Part shown: piece after piece, positions 1,960 through 45,650 of the stretch
Layout of the letters: each line of letters begins with the position of its first letter
How positions within the stretch are numbered: the stretch's first letter is position 1
Assembly (NCBI GenBank): GCA_951406725.2
Contig: OX597835.1
Coordinates: forward strand, 20,150,001-20,214,000
Length of the DNA stretch: 64,000 nucleotides
From: Octopus vulgaris
Taxonomy: Eukaryota
Reading direction: 5' to 3'
The notes under the pieces: generated by a model
The model's database searches: none
Seen by the model: only the letters and a program-made list of their open reading frames with translations
What the model was told of the DNA's origin: nothing
Translations under genes and position numbers: made by a program

Positions 1960-3300
1960 ATGTGTGTGTATGGTGGGTATTTTGAGAATGAGCTTATATG
2001 CTATGAATAAAAGCAAAAGTATCGTCACTCTGTAAGTAAGCTATTCATTTCGCTCTGCTCCTTCATTGAAATTGAAACTGAGAGGAAACTGATTACTTTC
2101 GACTCCTTTTTCTCTCCTTATGAAAGAAGTCTAGTCTCGTTCTCTGTTCAAAGTAATATAGATATACTAGCAGTATCCCCCGACGTTGCTCGGGTTTGTA
2201 AGGGAAATAACTATATAAGTATTTTTAGAGAGTTATAGCCAAAAAATAGCAAAAAAATACATTAAAAATGGAAAAAAAATTAATGGTAAATTTTTTTTTT
2301 TAAATCGTTGACTCATCGTAGACATTTTTAGAGAGTTACTTCCCTTATATAATAGCGAAAAAAATGCATTAAAATGAAAAAAATGATGGTAAATTATTTT
2401 TTTAAATCGTGGACTCATCGTAGACATTTTTGGAGAGTTATGTGCATTAAAATGAAAAAAATGGTAAATTATTTTTTAAATTGTAGACTCATCGTAGACG
2501 CACGGTAATACCCAGAAGGGCTCGATATGAATCACGACTATAAGATACCCGGTTTTGGTTAAACTGCACCGCAAAATGTGGGAGTAGTTAGGAATCTAAA
2601 TCGTAGGAGACAGACACACAACCTCACTTTTATATATAAACACTAGCAGTATCACCAGGCTTTGCTCGGGTTTGTTAAGGGAAATAACTATATAAGCATT
2701 TTTAGAGAGTTACTTCCTTTATAGATGCCAATTCGGGCTTTCTTAGCCATTTCTGTTTTGGTGTCTTCAAGTCATGAAGTCGTTGTTCTAAAAGAACGCT
2801 GGTCTCCTTGACAACGCATTACGACGTTGATTTCCTTAAACACCCTTCCCCACAGCTTCACGAGGGAGGGAAGAAGGGGGAGAAGCAAACACAGGTGCAG
2901 GTGTTTGAGCGTGGACGCCAACTTCGCCCCCATCGACACACGAAAAATTATGCATTAAAATGGAATAAAAAATTGTTAAATTATTTTTTAAATCGTAGAC
3001 TCATCGTAGACGCGCGCTAATAGCCAGACGGGCTCGATATTAATCACGACTATAAGATACCCTGTTTTGGTTAAACTGCACCGCAAAATGTGGGAGGAGT
3101 TAGGAATCTAAATCGTAGGAGACAGACACACAACTTCTCTTTTATATATAAAGATATCTCATAATGTCTTATCGAACATACTGTGGTCAACGGCCATCAA
3201 CTTTTCCTTGTCGCTTATCAGCAGGTTAGCTCTGTTCTCGTCTACCTTGACGTCTAGCTTGATTGTATACTCCAGTCATATGCATTGGATGATTCTATGT
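1960..3300. mobile_element. Interspersed repeat (second copy at ~7440-7700 in opposite orientation) split by Helitron-like insertions
   Basis: 2010-2166 and 3153-3230 are together the reverse complement of the contiguous 7450-7685. Confidence 0.6.
2167..3155 (+). mobile_element. Two tandem non-autonomous Helitron/Helentron-like (Lep1/HINE-like) elements (2167-2640, 2642-3155)
   Basis: Both start ACTAGCAGTATC..C.G.CGTTGCTCGGGTTTG (subterminal hairpin) and end GACAGACACACAAC..C.CTTTTATATATAAA. They share an internal block, and no TSD is evident. Confidence 0.55.
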
Positions 3301-20775: not shown

Positions 20776-21099
20776 CTCAGGTAGTGGTGGGGATATACGA
20801 TCTATGAAATTGGTGCAAGATATGCATCTATATACCAGCGATAATGGTGATTTCCTGGTTTGTTGATAATGAACATATAAAGATATTTAAATATACGTAC
20901 ACGTAAATGGGGGTACCAGTGAACATAAAAGCAGTTTTATACGAAAATCTTGCGGTCGTTTTAGGAATATGGATTTTCTGGGAGGAGAAGACTCCCAGTC
21001 CCCTCGCTTCTGCCCATTTTAGTCACTTCTTACACCCCGCAGGGAAGATGTCGACTGCATTCTCTCTCTCTTTCACCTAGCACACGACCCGCCGTTTCT

Positions 21100-21690
21100 C
21101 GTCTCCCGTTTCCCACTCACCTAGCACCCCACCAACACACCATTCTCCTGTGACTACAGTGCGACCCCTCCACTTCGCCAACCTACCCCTTCCCTCTTTC
21201 AAACGAGCCCATAACCTACGTGACTTTCTGGTCCACAGTTCCTTCCCGAACACCTCTTCACAGCCTGGCTCGCTCCCCTGCTCCTACCCACACTGCCGCA
21301 CTACCTCTCCAACACCACCATCCTCACAGGCAACCATCATCGTCGCTATCATATCACTGTCTTTCTAAACTGCACTTCTAGCAACGTCATTTACTGCATC
21401 TCCTTCTCTTTCCTTCCTTCTCTATACATTGGTCAAACGGGACGCCGCTTGGCTGACCGGTTCGCGGAGCACCTTCGAGACATTAGACTCAGCAATGATA
21501 CCCCGGTCTCGCGCCATTTCTGCTCTACCGGTCATTCATTACATCACCAGTCTCTGTTAGGATTGTTTTGCACAGGACTATCCGCACTCCCGCCTTCGCC
21601 ATGAACAAGATTTAATCTTCTCTTTTCGCTCCTTTGCGCCACATAGACTCAAATCCTCTCACAACTTCTCCATTCTTCACCTCCTCTCTT
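21100..21690 (+). pseudogene. Penelope-like element GIY-YIG endonuclease region, decayed
   Basis: PLPSFKRAHNLRDFLVHS linker, then from 21368 NCTSSNVIYCISFSFLPSLYIGQTGRRLADRFAEHLRDIRLSNDTPVSRHF (VIY...YIG..R..EH). Confidence 0.85.
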
Positions 21691-25300: not shown

Positions 25301-25841
25301 TGTGTGGGTGAGTGTACGCATGCGTATGCTTGTATATTTTCTGGGTTCGGGTGTATGTGTGCAGAATCGTGGGCAAAGTTTCTATTATACCTTTAATGTG
25401 TTCGCATATTGCATTCAGATTGGAATTTGGTAAAGCAGAATCTCTTACTGATGACCCTCGAAAGCTCACGCACATCTATCTATCTGTATGCATGTATGTC
25501 TGCATATATATACATATTTATACTTACATACATACATATATATATTCTACACACACACACGCACACATATATATATACATATATATATATACATACATAA
25601 GTATATACGTGTATATATATATATATATATTCTTGCTACCTTAAAATTTTAATTAATGATAAAATGTTTATATATAACATAAGGGACTAAAGCCATCTGA
25701 ATATGGCTAGGGACAGGGCAGGGTGGTGGGGGTGTTACTGTTGCATTTAGCCCCAGGCGAACATCGACGTCACCAGAAAGGCTCGACACCGTCACGGTGT
25801 CCTTAACCTGCAAAGGGAGGTAATTCCCCGATGAAGCGGAA

Positions 25842-25893
25842 ACCACACACGGACCATGGTTTCAAGGTGTATTGCCTATCGTCGGCGTGTGGT
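25842..25893 (-). ncRNA. Type I hammerhead ribozyme motif, copy 1
   Basis: Minus strand reads AC-CACACG CCGACGA UAGG-CAAUACA-CCUU GAAAC-CAUG-GUC CGUGUG-UGGU. Stem I is CACACG/CGUGUG, stem II AGG/CCU, stem III AC/GU with palindromic loop. Predicted cleavage is between 25852 and 25851. Confidence 0.8.
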
Positions 25894-26201
25894 AGGCCTC
25901 CGCTTCCTCGACGAATTCTCACTCTGCAGGATATTCATATATAGATTTTCAAGCAAAATACATTTGCTGATTTCGAAAATCTGTTCGAAAGCAATAATAA
26001 TTCTCTAAAAGAGATATAGACAGTAACTGCTCGATAACATAAGGGACTAAAGCCATCTGAATATGGCTAGGGACAGGGCAGGGTGGTGGGGGTGTTACTG
26101 TTGCATTTAGCCCCAGGCGAACATCGACGTCACCAGAAAGGCTCGACACCGTCACGGTGTCCTTAACCTGCAAAGGGAGGTAATTCCCCGATGAAGCGGA
26201 A

Positions 26202-26253
26202 ACCACACACGGACCATGGTTTCAAGGTGTATTGCCTATCGTCGGCGTGTGGT
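26202..26253 (-). ncRNA. Type I hammerhead ribozyme motif, copy 2
   Basis: Identical to copy 1 and exactly 360 nt away. Predicted cleavage is between 26212 and 26211. Confidence 0.8.
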
Positions 26254-26588
26254 AGGCCTCCGCTTCCTCGACGAATTCTCACTCTGCAGGATATTCATAT
26301 ATAGATTTTCAAGCAAAATACATTTGCTGATTTCGAAAATCTGTTCGAAAGCAATAATAATTCTCTAAAAGAGATATAGACAGTAACTGCTCGATAACAT
26401 AAGGGACTAAAGCCATCTGAATATGGCTAGGGACAGGGCAGGGTGGTGGGGGTGTTACTGTTGCATTTAGCCCCAGGCGAACATCGACGTCACCAGAAAG
26501 GCTCGACACCGTCAGCAAATGTATTTTGCTTGAAAATCTATATATGAATATCCTGCAGAGTGAGAATTCGTCGAGGAAGCGGAGGCCT

Positions 26589-26640
26589 ACCACACGCCGA
26601 AGATAGGCAATACACCTTGAAACCATGGTCCGTGTGTGGT
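26589..26640 (+). ncRNA. Type I hammerhead ribozyme motif, copy 3 (inverted unit)
   Basis: ACCACACG CCGAAGA TAGGCAATACACCTT GAAAC CATG GTC CGTGTG TGGT. It differs from copies 1 and 2 only at the variable N7 core position. Predicted cleavage is after 26630. Confidence 0.8.
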
Positions 26641-26876
26641 TTCCGCTTCATCGGGGAATTACCTCCCTTTGCAGGTTAAGGACACCGTGACGGTGTCGAG
26701 CCTTTCTGGTGACGTCGATGTTCGCCTGGGGCTAAATGCAACAGTAACACCCCCACCACCCTGCCCTGTCCCTAGCCATATTCAGATGGCTTGTAGTCCC
26801 TTATGTTATCGATCAGCAGTGTTACATCCTGTACATATATATATACACATACACACACCCATATATATATATATAC

Positions 26877-27105: not shown

Positions 27106-27346
27106 CAGTTTATCATTAATTAAAATCTTAAGGAAGCAAGAGTATTCATGAAAAAATTCTTATTTACCAGTGGTCTAGCGAGAAAGAAAAAAATTAGTCA
27201 ATAGTCTATATATTATTCAAAGAAGAAAACACTGTATGTTCAAACACAAAAGTGATACCCGAAGAATAGGATATCTGATGGGTTGGAGTTTTAACTGCCC
27301 TTTCTAGCGTGTCAGATATCCTATTCTTCGGGTATCCCTTTTGTGT
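27102..27346. repeat. Fold-back element in a TA tract
   Basis: 35-bp inverted repeat (1 mismatch) at 27244-27278 / 27312-27346. A further partial arm copy lies at ~27605-27635. Confidence 0.7.
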
Positions 27347-27383
27347 ATATATATATATATATATATATATACATACATATACG

Positions 27384-27561: not shown

Positions 27562-27609
<48 letters not shown>

Positions 27610-27899
27610 AAAGAGATACCCGAAGAATAGGATATATACATGTATATACGCATAGCGAAAGAATAAAAGCGAAAGTATTTCAATTGAAACAATATAAAAT
27701 TTAGATTATTGAAAGTGAAATAATATGTAATTGAAACAATGTATAACTTACTCCGCCGAAGGCCTCATTTTATTCTTTGAGTTTTGAGACATAATACGGA
27801 ACCAGTGCCAATGTTGAATTGTTTTAATCCCATAAATCTACATGTCGACGTTCCTGGTTTCTCATAGTATTACTATGTAAAATCTGATCTCATTTCCTT

Positions 27900-28250
27900 G
27901 AATCTTTGGAGTATACATTTGAAAGAGACAGATACAAAAGACGATATTGCTAGAGTATACAGGAGTGCTAGAAAGAAATTAGATAATATTATACGTAATG
28001 ATACCAGTGGTACCTGCCCCAGATATAGAAACAATGAATGAAATAGAATACAAAGAACTTTTGACAAAGCAAACACGGTGATCAAGTAATATAAAACCGA
28101 CAAATATCAAGGAGTGATGTTTGTAGAGACCACAGCCCCTGGAGAACTAGCCTGTAGATTTAGAAAACTCTGCTGGAGACCAAACGCAACATTAAGATTG
28201 TTGAAAAATCAGGGAGCTCAGTCAGATCACAACTATGTAAGATGTACCCC
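27900..28250 (+). pseudogene. Possible decayed Penelope-like RT C-terminal/linker fragment
   Basis: Discontinuous translation IIRNDTSGTCPRYRN...YKTDKYQGVMFVETTAPGELA resembles PLE linker regions. Judged by eye only. Confidence 0.3.
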
Positions 28251-28578
28251 TCTGAGAATACCATATGCACCAATGATAACTGCATGGTATGTAGGATTAG
28301 CCGTGGCATTAAATGTAGAACTAGAAATGTAGATTACAGCATAAGATGCATAGAAGGTGCTTGTGTTTACGCGGCAAAATGTTACTGCTCCCTCTGAGTT
28401 GATGTCTATATGATGAAACTCGTCCGCTTTTTTTCTATTCAATTAATTTGGAACATGGAGTCATTTTATTGTTACTCTTTCACAGTTTTATCTATCTTTA
28501 GAGTTTTTGTTTTCTTCATCCATACTCCTCGGAATAAATGAATCAATTTCCCATTGGTAAACATTGTCCAGTTATATA

Positions 28579-33412: not shown

Positions 33413-33450
33413 TTAGTACCGGTTTCAGGATTTGCGAATTTTTCAGATAA
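33413..33450 (-). ncRNA. Degenerate hammerhead-like motif in an inverted terminal repeat at the 5' end of the Penelope RT fragment
   Basis: Minus strand TTAT CTGAAAA ...13 nt... GAAAC-CG-GTA CTAA, with palindromic ACCGGT stem III. Core G8 and stem II are degraded. Confidence 0.35.
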
Positions 33451-33469
33451 TTACTAATGCCTGCAAATC

Positions 33470-34450
33470 AAATTCAGGTCTATACATAAATATCTGAACA
33501 CCAGAAGACTTAAGATTAATGCCTATTATAGCGGGCCCAGCCAGTGATACCCACCGCCTAAGCAACTTTCTGGACATACTATTGAAACCTTTCCTCAGAT
33601 ACATCAAAAATTTCATTAGAGACGATCTGGCCATGCTAGAACATCTACCAAAAACCACCAACGAAGGAGCACTATTAGTCTGCTCCGATGTCATCAACCT
33701 CTGCACTAGCATTCCACAGGTCTACGAAAGAGAGGCAATAAAATTCTGGTTAGAAAAATACCCCGAAGATCTCCTCACCGCATAAACCAGACCTATGTCA
33801 TTGAATCCCTGAAGTTCATCCTACAAAATAATTAATTACTTCCTATTCAATGCGACATACTACCGCCAAAAAATGCAATATTGCGATGGGACCGAAAGCA
33901 GCGCCTTTCCTTGCGAACCTAATAATCCGTTTCTTTGAATCTACCATATATGAACTTTCGCTCTAAACATTTAGACCCCCATTCCACCAGTATATAAAAG
34001 AAAACTGGAAAAGGTACATAGACGATTGTTTTATCATCTGGAATGAAACCTATGATAAACTCCTGGATTTCAAATCCACACTGAGTAATATAATCTCCAA
34101 TATTCAATTCACAATAGAATATAGCAAGGATCAGGTTCCATTTCTGGACATTTTGGTTATAAAATATCCAACAATCAAACTGTAAAACTGACATCTATTA
34201 CAAACCAACAGACTGAAAACACTATATCCTTTTCAGTTCATGCCATCATAAACACACTAAAATAAATATCCCATTCAATCTAGCTAAAAGGATCTGTACA
34301 ATTGTATCTGACACAACCACTGAGGTACTTCACCTACAAGACCTCAAAATAACATTCATTGAGCGTCAATACCAACCCACACTAATAGACAATGGAATTG
34401 AACGTGCCAAGAAATTGGACACAAACACACAAAGGACAAAAACGAAACAC
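33470..34450 (+). pseudogene. Penelope-like element reverse transcriptase, frameshifted
   Basis: PIIAGP...LSNFLDILLKPFL, DVINLCTSIP, AMGT..AP..ANL, WKRYIDDCFIIW, PFLDILV, TDIYYKPTD, FSSCH, NIPFNLAKRICTIV. Confidence 0.88.
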
Positions 34451-34489
34451 CATTTTAAATCACTCTCATACATATTAACACAGCATATT

Positions 34490-36354: not shown

Positions 36355-37530
36355 TGGGGTGCCGGCGTCTCTCCTTTCCCTGCCTACTGTCTTCGGCGCC
36401 TGATATTTTTACACAGAAACCATTTCTCATCACCAAAAAAGGTCAAAAAAAGGTTCATCCGTGAAACGTGACATCATTGAAGAGCACACATTCACTCTCT
36501 GCACGCGATAAGATTGGGAAAGTTTGCGTGGAACACATTGACTCAATTTGCTGACTCTTCCAATGGCATGCAGGTGTCGATGAATGGTTGAATGACCAAA
36601 TCCCAGATACTCTGCTAGTTCCTCAACAGTTAGGAGGGGTTTTTGTTCCATGAGTGTTTGCAGGACTCCCTCGTCGAACTCTACAGATCTTCCAGGATGA
36701 GGCTCGTCTTCTAGTCTGTAGTATCGGGCATCGAATTTCTGGAACAACACTGACTTATAATCCGATTCCCCTGTACTGCATTAATATTCCTTGCACTTTC
36801 CATTGCCTCTAGTGAACTCATAAAGCAAAATATGCCGAATATGGTCCTTTGTCACTTCCATTATAGCTTTGAAAGTGGAGGCGCAATGGCCCAGTGGTTA
36901 GGGCAGCGGACTCGCGGTCGTAGGATCGCGGTTTCGATTCCCAGACCGGGCGTTGTGAGTGTTTATTGAGCGAAAACGCCTAAAGCTCCACGAGGCTCCG
37001 GCAGGGGATGGTGGTGATCCCTGCTGTACTTTTTCACCACAACTTTCTCTCACTCTTACTTCCTGTTTCTGTTGTACCTGTATTTCAAAGGGCCGGCCTT
37101 GTCACTCTCTGTGTCACGCTGAATATCCCCGAGAACTACGTTAAGGGTACACGTGTCTGTGGAGTGCTCAGCCACTTACACGTTAATTTCATGAGCAGGC
37201 TGTTCCGTTGATTCGGATCAACCGGAACCCTCATCGTCGTAACCGACGGAGTGCTTCCACACTGTATTAATATTCCTCGCACTTTCCATTGCCTCTAGTG
37301 AACTCATAAAGCAAAATATGCCGGATATGCTCCTTTGTCACTTCCATTATAGCTTTGAAAATATAACTGTTAAAATCGGAGTGTACGTTTTAAAATTTTC
37401 ACTAAGAATAAGTACAAGTTAAAATTACTACCTGCTTCTATAGCAAGTTGATGCAGGTAGTTTATCCCATCCCCCTCCGACTTTATTTCATGCAAATGAA
37501 GAACAAAACCCGCATTATTTATGGGTTGAC
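36355..37530 (-). pseudogene. mariner transposase 5' portion, interrupted by a SINE
   Basis: LEDEPHPGRSVEFD...LTVEELAEYLGFGHSTIHRHLHAIG...CVPRKL (WVPxxL-like) and GDEKW. Confidence 0.85.
36875..37260 (+). mobile_element. SINE family B, full length, flanked by a 100-bp direct duplication
   Basis: Near-identical to 6873-7254. Flanks 36775-36874 and 37261-37360 match at 96/100. Confidence 0.9.
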
Positions 37531-44949: not shown

Positions 44950-45650
44950 GTAATTCACCGTGTCAGAAATTTGGAACCAACAAACTCTATTGCTTGGCAT
45001 TCGCGCCGGAAGCTCCCATATGGACATTTCTGAATATCTGGGTGTCAATCTGAGAAGAGCGCATTGTGCGGACATGTACCAAGCGTGATAAAAATCAAAC
45101 ATGATATTTGGGGTGATCACTAATGATGGCGACGTTAGGCTTACTTTCATCTTCCCACACGGCCTCAGACTCAATACGAAGTCCTACATCAAGTGCCTCG
45201 AGAAAGTAGTGCTGCCCTGGGTCAAGAAAGTGGCTTCTGGAAGACACTATGTCTGGCAACAGGACTCAGTACCACGCCACATAAACAGGAGAAACCAGTC
45301 ATGGCTGTTAGACAATTTCTGCGACCACATCACCCCTAACGTCTTTGTCACCAAACTCCCCAGATGGCAACCCCCTTTTATTATTATATGAGGGACGAAG
45401 TTCAGCTAGAACCCAACAAAACTTATAACACCAAGGATGAACTGAAAGCAAGAATTGTGGCAGCATTCACCAAATTAATCAAGGAGACTATCCAGAAGAT
45501 TTGCAGGAGATTGCGATTTTATTGAATAAATTCACTCGTTAGTATTTCAAGATATTTTAATGTAATTTTGGTAAATATATCTGTTAAAATGAGATATTAG
45601 TGTTACTTTCATTTTTGCGTATTTTAGACGGCATTTTATTCGCCACCCCT
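44950..45650 (+). pseudogene. Tc1/mariner-superfamily (maT/DD37D-like) transposase fossil, internally deleted
   Basis: MIFGVITNDG...FIFPHGLRLNTKSYIKCLEKVVLPW...YVWQQDSVPRH (QQDxAPxH catalytic-Asp motif) and a downstream DELKARI segment. Confidence 0.75.

Follow-up and report, generated by a model that had tools for sequence, protein, structure and literature searches.

A young 360-nt non-coding element with a variant hammerhead fold and Penelope-type insertion ends in Octopus vulgaris

The tandem repeat described here, from a 64,000-nt stretch of the Octopus vulgaris genome (the window), is one insertion of a young, non-coding and dispersed family of 360-nt elements. We give a probability of roughly two in three to a reading in which this element, with its variant hammerhead fold and Penelope-type ends, makes an RNA that is predicted to self-cleave and likely circularises, and in which a reverse transcriptase (RT)/GIY-YIG protein borrowed from a Penelope-like element (PLE) likely copies the circle into (TA)n tracts. 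The element is most probably a metazoan non-LTR retrozyme whose core is a variant one, the cleavage and the circle being the predicted part of that assignment. An initial annotation of the window had proposed a retrozyme linked to PLEs. The dispersed family, stem covariation, two-ended insertions and one haplotype per array support that interpretation, whereas its argument from Penelope fossils nearby does not hold.

Tandem Repeats Finder places the repeat at 25674-26514 of the window, with a period of 360, 2.3 copies and 100% matches. No letter differs between the two full units or along the 121 nt of the third, and the GC content of the unit (46.7%) exceeds the 25-42% found in most 1-kb bins of the window, in agreement with the relatively GC-rich, identical head-to-tail units and inverted copy initially annotated. 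With the monomer numbered from the predicted cut, this 841-nt left arm (25674..26514, minus strand) runs from monomer position 58 across two junctions to a "short" 3' end at 178, where it adjoins ATAT at 25673. The right, inverted arm (26512..26816, plus strand) joins it head-to-head with a 3-nt overlap, runs from monomer position 242 across one junction to about 185, and matches the unit at 302 of 305 bases (two substitutions and one insertion). It leads into the garbled start of a 44-nt tail (26810..26836, plus strand); compared letter by letter with the monomer, the matching blocks are split by short insertions, and the sequence continues into a (TA)n/(CA)n target. Such a garbled right tail is atypical for the family. 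As a whole, the window copy is two-armed, its left end being short and its right tail garbled and truncated. Elsewhere in the window, a short inverted/direct repeat pair of about 40 nt (27235-27350 and 27596-27635, 361 nt apart) flanks a long TA tract and is perhaps what remains of the ends of another two-armed insertion.

Using a relaxed scan of both strands of the whole 64-kb window, we found three hammerhead matches, all inside the 360-bp repeat, with cores starting at 26245(-), 25885(-) and 26597(+). The type I hammerhead-like motif of copy 2 (26206..26251, minus strand) has its predicted cut at 26212|26211 and the same motif in copy 1 (25846..25891, minus strand) at 25852|25851, exactly where the initial annotation had put them; the motif of the inverted arm (26591..26636, plus strand) adds a third predicted cut at 26630|26631. 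The exact 360-nt monomer between the two minus-strand cuts (25852..26211) has a predicted rod-like fold with both ends paired. The complete type I layout claimed for each unit is present, whereas the core is not canonical: in copy 2, a 6-bp stem I is followed by the core CCGACGA, in which C replaces U4 (U4C), a U.U mismatch closing stem II, GAAA, and a 2-bp stem III with a palindromic loop. The Rfam comparison that had been suggested gave no hammerhead match to the window repeat at the gathering threshold, nor up to E=10, most likely because core position 4 is C and a U.U mismatch opens stem II. Of the core positions (C3 U4 G5 A6 N7 G8 A9 ... G12 A13 A14 A15.1, U16.1 H17), all match except for U4C in the window subfamily or C3U in older subfamilies, where U3 stands opposite G8 without a compensating A8. 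Genome-wide, pattern searches match the canonical core 8 times and the U4C core 1,242 times, and each reversed control gives 0. The variable core position 7 is C in 133 units and T in 64; the A of the inverted arm is found in 1 of 198 units, and may for that reason be an RT or assembly error.

The hammerhead fold appears to be under selection across subfamilies. Stems I-III form one type I hammerhead per unit, with compensatory changes between subfamilies, and despite 28% divergence the stems, catalytic G8, G12, GAAA, GUC and the palindromic loop have been retained. The initial annotation had proposed a search for stem covariation, and covariation is present: among 16 distinct hammerhead regions picked to span the subfamilies, 97.8% of cells pair, against 18-51% in slid controls. 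Both partners have changed at 5 of 20 pairs: one belongs to stem I, two belong to the distal extension, and the remaining two are the pairs of the loop palindrome. Because the 16 rows represent only about three or four lineages, this amounts to a handful of events. Counted by eye, 97 of the first 100 matches listed have a palindromic stem III loop (CAUG 62, UAUA 20, CUAG 15), all of them from one contig and many from the same arrays. A short helix III with a palindromic loop has been described as a mark of hammerheads acting as dimers (PMC4209133). The linear monomer folds better than 100 of 100 shuffles (z -4.8), and the circular monomer is 63% paired, with z -6.7 for the window subfamily and -3.0 for subfamily B against 40 shuffles. 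The active fold of the monomer, at -3.0 kcal/mol, lies 17 kcal/mol above the minimum-energy fold (-20.4 kcal/mol). U4C is reported to lower in vitro activity considerably yet to support viroid infectivity, and a U10.1-U11.1 mismatch to be the best-tolerated mispair (PMC3088659). Since the core deviates at positions that lower in vitro activity according to the same source, cleavage may be slow or dimer-dependent; overall, we predict that self-cleavage is likely but weak.

A DNA search of the 2.8-Gb genome for the dispersed copies that the initial annotation had suggested looking for returned 931 candidates, and the 40 that were scored gave 181 matches; among those of full length, identity is mostly 98-100%. 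A stem II/III pattern that does not depend on the core, and takes in the older subfamilies, matches 2,139 times genome-wide, with 0 matches in the reversed control. The 360-nt arrays occur on many contigs and contain up to 15 junctions. At least two older subfamilies are present, a close one with the core UUGAUGA and loop CUAG, and a more distant one (about 72% identity) whose period is about 355-359 nt and which has the core UUGACGA, loop UAUA and 376 matches to its diagnostic motif. Loci were chosen by near-identity or by hammerhead pattern, and the sample is thus biased to intact, multi-unit copies. At two loci, L081 (G000:C1:94319500-94329000) and L082 (C1:42998500-43006500), older-subfamily insertions were later duplicated together with their flanks, with periods of about 1.38 and 1.63 kb; tandem duplication after insertion also occurs.

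We mapped the insertion ends at 64 loci, dropping pieces under 40 nt and one fragmented, degraded locus (L158), which left 63. The outer 3' ends (n = 109) cluster at two monomer positions 44 nt apart: 49 lie at 178, 40 at 222, 18 within 164-185 or 218-221, and 2 elsewhere. TA repeats adjoin 93 of the 109. All 47 two-armed loci are oriented tail-out, and 41 of the 44 that could be fully classed combine a short end with a long one (p 7e-10). The 5' starts (n = 110) fall all over the unit, less often beyond position 240; the arms mostly join with 0-13 nt of overlap; and 86 of 109 arms are longer than one unit, the longest crossing 15 junctions. The 72%-identical subfamily has the same two 3' ends. 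Target-site duplications are unreadable in pure (TA)n, and two loci with mixed flanks (L027, L029) show 12-13-nt repeats. Craig et al. (2021, bioRxiv 10.1101/2021.04.23.441226) describe as PLE hallmarks partial tandems, a 5'-truncated copy in inverted orientation, a tail of 30-40 bp confined to one end and microsatellite targets; in their account the mechanism behind the tandem and inverted copies and the one-sided tail is called unresolved. Like a PLE, the 360-nt element ends at fixed 3' positions, is truncated to varying extents at the 5' side, includes a 5'-truncated copy that is inverted, and carries a tail on one end only. This two-armed shape with fixed ends likely points to a Penelope-type reverse transcriptase copying a small RNA circle.

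None of the 109 3' ends lies at the predicted cut (position 360). Likewise, a genome-wide pattern search, of a form that misses junctions preceded by C, found no pile-up of 5' junctions there: 1 exact case, against 7 inversion junctions among 30 inspected control-position matches. A possible enrichment of 5' starts at the cut in the mapped loci (5 of 110 within 1-4 or 358-360 against 2.1 expected, p 0.07) was not confirmed by that search and was set aside. A single short fragment of an older subfamily (L088:1470-1525) has a 3' end exactly at the predicted cut and is possibly a copied cleavage product. Among the contigs of 4 sequencing runs, four of those listed, drawn from two runs, stop a single base beyond the predicted cut. 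We rejected cleavage as the explanation: contigs end there because the 31-mer ending at that point begins exactly at the polymorphic core position 7, where the assembly graph branches. A run labelled with a second organism also contains a 390-nt contig (the unit plus 30 nt), which fits tandem DNA as well as a circle; assembled contigs of either origin look alike and carry neither end nor strand, and none of the runs listed with the unit is registered as RNA.

Variation among the units follows the locus. At 17 polymorphic sites, units disagree in 2.2% of comparisons within an arm (0.85% without one mosaic locus) and in 1.5% between the arms of a locus, against 32% between loci (119,789/370,692). 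We distinguished 14 full-unit haplotypes, each largely uniform inside its arrays. Seven locus-private variants are carried by all covering units, six of them spanning both arms; two further private variants are present in only some covering units, and 176 are singletons. The fixed ones indicate a recurrent bottleneck of one unit, from which a new variant comes to occupy both arms. One haplotype per locus, together with the lack of any 3' end at the predicted cut, fits rolling reverse transcription of a one-unit circle, which is our best inference. Such a circle accounts for the haplotype uniformity, the private variants and the 5' ends away from the cut, the 11-junction array L131 excepted. 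This array is a mosaic of several haplotypes, for which a single circle alone is insufficient and template switching or a multimer would be needed. Circular templates have been proposed before, for PLEs (Cervera and de la Pena 2014, PMC4209133) and, in a 2020 review, for retrozymes (PMC7761336).

The Penelope fossils in the window noticed earlier are real (21067-21436, 27931-28364 and 33450-34486), but they are degraded remains of three distinct Penelope-like groups, and none of them adjoins the repeat; since similar pieces number thousands of candidates genome-wide, finding some in the window does not argue for a link. The window also contains two transposase-like fragments, at 36433-36780 (minus strand; with HTH matches in Pfam) and 45092-45388 (plus strand), which may be of the Tc1/mariner type. 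Searches with the Penelope fossils uncovered three PLE groups. One is a young, intact Neptune-like family with an open frame of 753-764 aa containing RT and GIY-YIG domains (Pfam), which language-model neighbours of the 753-aa frame also carry, and a C-x4-C-x2-C linker like that given for Neptune/Nematis by Craig et al. (2021, bioRxiv 10.1101/2021.04.23.441226). Eight further loci of this family are 98.9-99.9% identical (the family as a whole was seen at L076-L080, L083, L084, L086 and L087, for example G000:C9:2164500-2174499). At 5 of 5 two-armed loci, the family has one short arm and one with a 45-nt tail, tail-out inverted and in (TA)n; the tail of the 360-nt element is 44 nt. From this shared geometry, we infer that the 753-aa family is the best candidate driver. 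The end region of the 360-nt unit aligns with that of the candidate driver no better than shuffles do (1,263 and 700 of 2,000 score as high), its similarity to the ends of another PLE family is not above shuffles either, no alignable DNA homology links the unit to the terminal repeats (pLTRs) of the three PLE families examined, and the terminal repeat of the 753-aa family holds no convincing hammerhead. A second young PLE family (L212-L223, for example G000:C1:35008500-35016500) is very abundant, with long open frames and direct tandem repeats, and its terminal repeat carries, by eye, a minimal-hammerhead-like motif with an A6U-type core. As a driver it is a poorer match and was rejected: its outer ends, in (TA)n, are of one type and tailless in 19 of 19 listed. 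No RT or GIY-YIG open frame lies within or contiguous with the 360-nt units, in which we found no B box and only weak matches to promoter motifs.

The preferred reading, retrotransposition through an RNA circle, can be set out as a series of steps. Transcription would cross an array of at least two units, and the RNA would be cleaved after GUC, probably through the palindromic helix III of two hammerheads; conservation of the fold is observed, and cleavage is its predicted activity. In Xenopus, only 1 of 9 retrozyme dimers is reported to have cleaved in vitro (Li, Clavereau and Pollet 2026, bioRxiv 10.64898/2026.07.22.740005). By analogy with coral, mussel and axolotl retrozymes, a host ligase would then close a 360-nt circle. 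An endonuclease would nick a (TA)n tract, and both DNA ends would prime cDNA on the same RNA species at the two fixed internal sites, monomer positions 178 and 222, which are seen in the insertions. Each cDNA would roll through the sealed junction 0-15 times and stop at a variable point, and the two would join head-to-head, often with a short overlap, as the geometry of the loci shows. In a more specific form, the insertions would record a Penelope reaction on a 360-nt RNA circle, with twin priming at (TA)n from fixed sites 44 nt apart and cDNAs rolling through the ligated junction; the hammerhead would be tuned weak (C3U -> U4C, the canonical core almost never being used), which would let circles persist and confine their cleavage to dimers; and an intact Neptune-like enzyme would be parasitised through structure and spacing, not homology. 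We offer this combination tentatively, as a possibility that stands well below the general reading.

The same Penelope-driven element could instead be copied from an uncleaved read-through transcript of a tandem array, with a weak or vestigial hammerhead and no need of a circle. The core is atypical in nearly all copies, ends would be just as absent from the cut if the RNA were never cut, a multimer would account for the mosaic array L131, autonomous PLEs also produce partial tandems (Craig et al. 2021, bioRxiv 10.1101/2021.04.23.441226), and a homogeneous uncleaved multimer predicts much the same geometry. However, arrays with up to 15 junctions would demand equally long source transcripts, 14 largely uniform haplotypes, like the private variants fixed in both arms, require a one-unit stage that recurs, and the hammerhead features listed above have been kept across 28% divergence. 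We regard a linear template as unlikely, while ranking it first among the alternatives. Far less probable is an origin of the unit as the terminal repeat of a coding PLE, a case that the initial annotation had itself raised against its interpretation; the repeat would have been left by 5' truncation and then amplified locally as a minisatellite through unequal crossover. Among Xenopus retrozyme families, 24 of 57 are homologous to annotated transposable elements, nearly all of them PLEs, and local amplification is favoured there (Li, Clavereau and Pollet 2026, bioRxiv 10.64898/2026.07.22.740005); the ends of the 360-nt element are also PLE-like. Against this, tblastn with three PLE proteins gave matches in 3 of 159 overlapping locus records, none contiguous with a unit, and DNA similarity to pLTRs of the young PLE families is lacking, as described above. 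Moreover, both arms hold whole units of one shared haplotype, so the tandem structure seems to have been present at insertion.

Two further explanations have very little chance of being right. Tandem copies and TA targets would suit a non-autonomous element of the Helitron-like, DNA rolling-circle kind, in which the hammerhead is incidental, as would the 70-75% identity that a 60-70-nt part of the unit shows to a section of a repeat whose end is a hairpin followed by CTAG. Helitron-like elements have a fixed 5' TC and a 3' hairpin with CTRR ends and are not known to invert; variable 5' ends, tail-out inversion and a one-sided tail are not among their known features. The 360-nt element, in contrast, has variable 5' ends, other 3' ends without CTRR, tail-out inversion and a one-sided 44-nt tail, and its covariation is that of an RNA structure. 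The repeat with the hairpin and CTAG, presumably a Helitron-like 3' end, is abundant, with examples at L009:2900-3360, L014:1940-2500 and window 2100-2600; in the L009 and L014 copies the similar stretch corresponds to monomer positions 104-176 and is possibly a captured 5'-truncated retrozyme end, and the window copy is without it. An assembly artefact in the window, for its part, would explain the perfect identity of the tandem units, the private errors in the inverted arm and the garbled end. It could alter the copy number in the window but not the family, in which the two-ended build is found again at 47 two-armed loci spread over many contigs, each locus with its own haplotype and junction.

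Copying of a circle by a Penelope-type enzyme, the reading we prefer, places the element within a class that is already known; what differs is the variant core and the documented two-ended, PLE-type insertion. As in the metazoan non-LTR retrozymes of Cervera and de la Pena (2020, PMC7229834), the unit is a non-coding tandem monomer of 150-450 bp, with GC under 50% and no LTRs, that carries one type I hammerhead and is predicted to form a highly self-paired circle. Retrozymes are described there from corals (220-245 nt), mussels (350-390 nt) and axolotl, and the mussel family is closest in size. Cleavage and circles were demonstrated for those retrozymes and are predicted for the octopus element, whose core is non-canonical in nearly all copies. 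The word "cephalopod" is absent from that paper, and we found no cephalopod retrozyme in the openly accessible papers searched. Nor did we find two-armed, tail-out insertions with two fixed internal ends described for retrozymes in those parts of the literature. The vertebrate non-LTR retrozymes of Li, Clavereau and Pollet (2026, bioRxiv 10.64898/2026.07.22.740005) are likewise proposed to be non-autonomous PLE derivatives. In the portions of that preprint available, the link is drawn from co-occurrence and pLTR homology, molluscs are not covered and insertion ends are not analysed, whereas for the 360-nt element the link is its insertion anatomy and no pLTR homology was found. As far as these sources go, the retrozyme-PLE link in print rests on co-occurrence and repeat homology. 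Here, the full PLE insertion anatomy is found on a 360-nt non-coding substrate at countable loci, with an intact, young candidate enzyme in the same genome, which makes the circle and twin-priming model testable with a minimal RNA.

With endonuclease-bearing (EN+) PLEs and their non-autonomous forms such as MRC1 (Craig et al. 2021, bioRxiv 10.1101/2021.04.23.441226; PMC4209133), the element shares 5' truncation, tandem and inverted copies, a tail on one end and (TA)n targets, and, according to PMC4209133, a hammerhead upstream of the 3' end with a palindromic helix III. It differs in having no open frame, the whole element being the repeat unit; in a tail of 44 nt, where those reported are 30-40; and in full stems I-III, where the PLE form is minimal. 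U4C and the U10.1-U11.1 mismatch have each been described from natural hammerheads that are active (Perreault et al. 2011, PMC3088659), whereas in the 360-nt family they occur together in over 1,200 copies; sister subfamilies set U3 opposite G8, whereas the covariation described in that survey is U3-A8. A very successful retrozyme family can thus have a core that escapes Rfam and strict hammerhead descriptors, and such families are probably undercounted.
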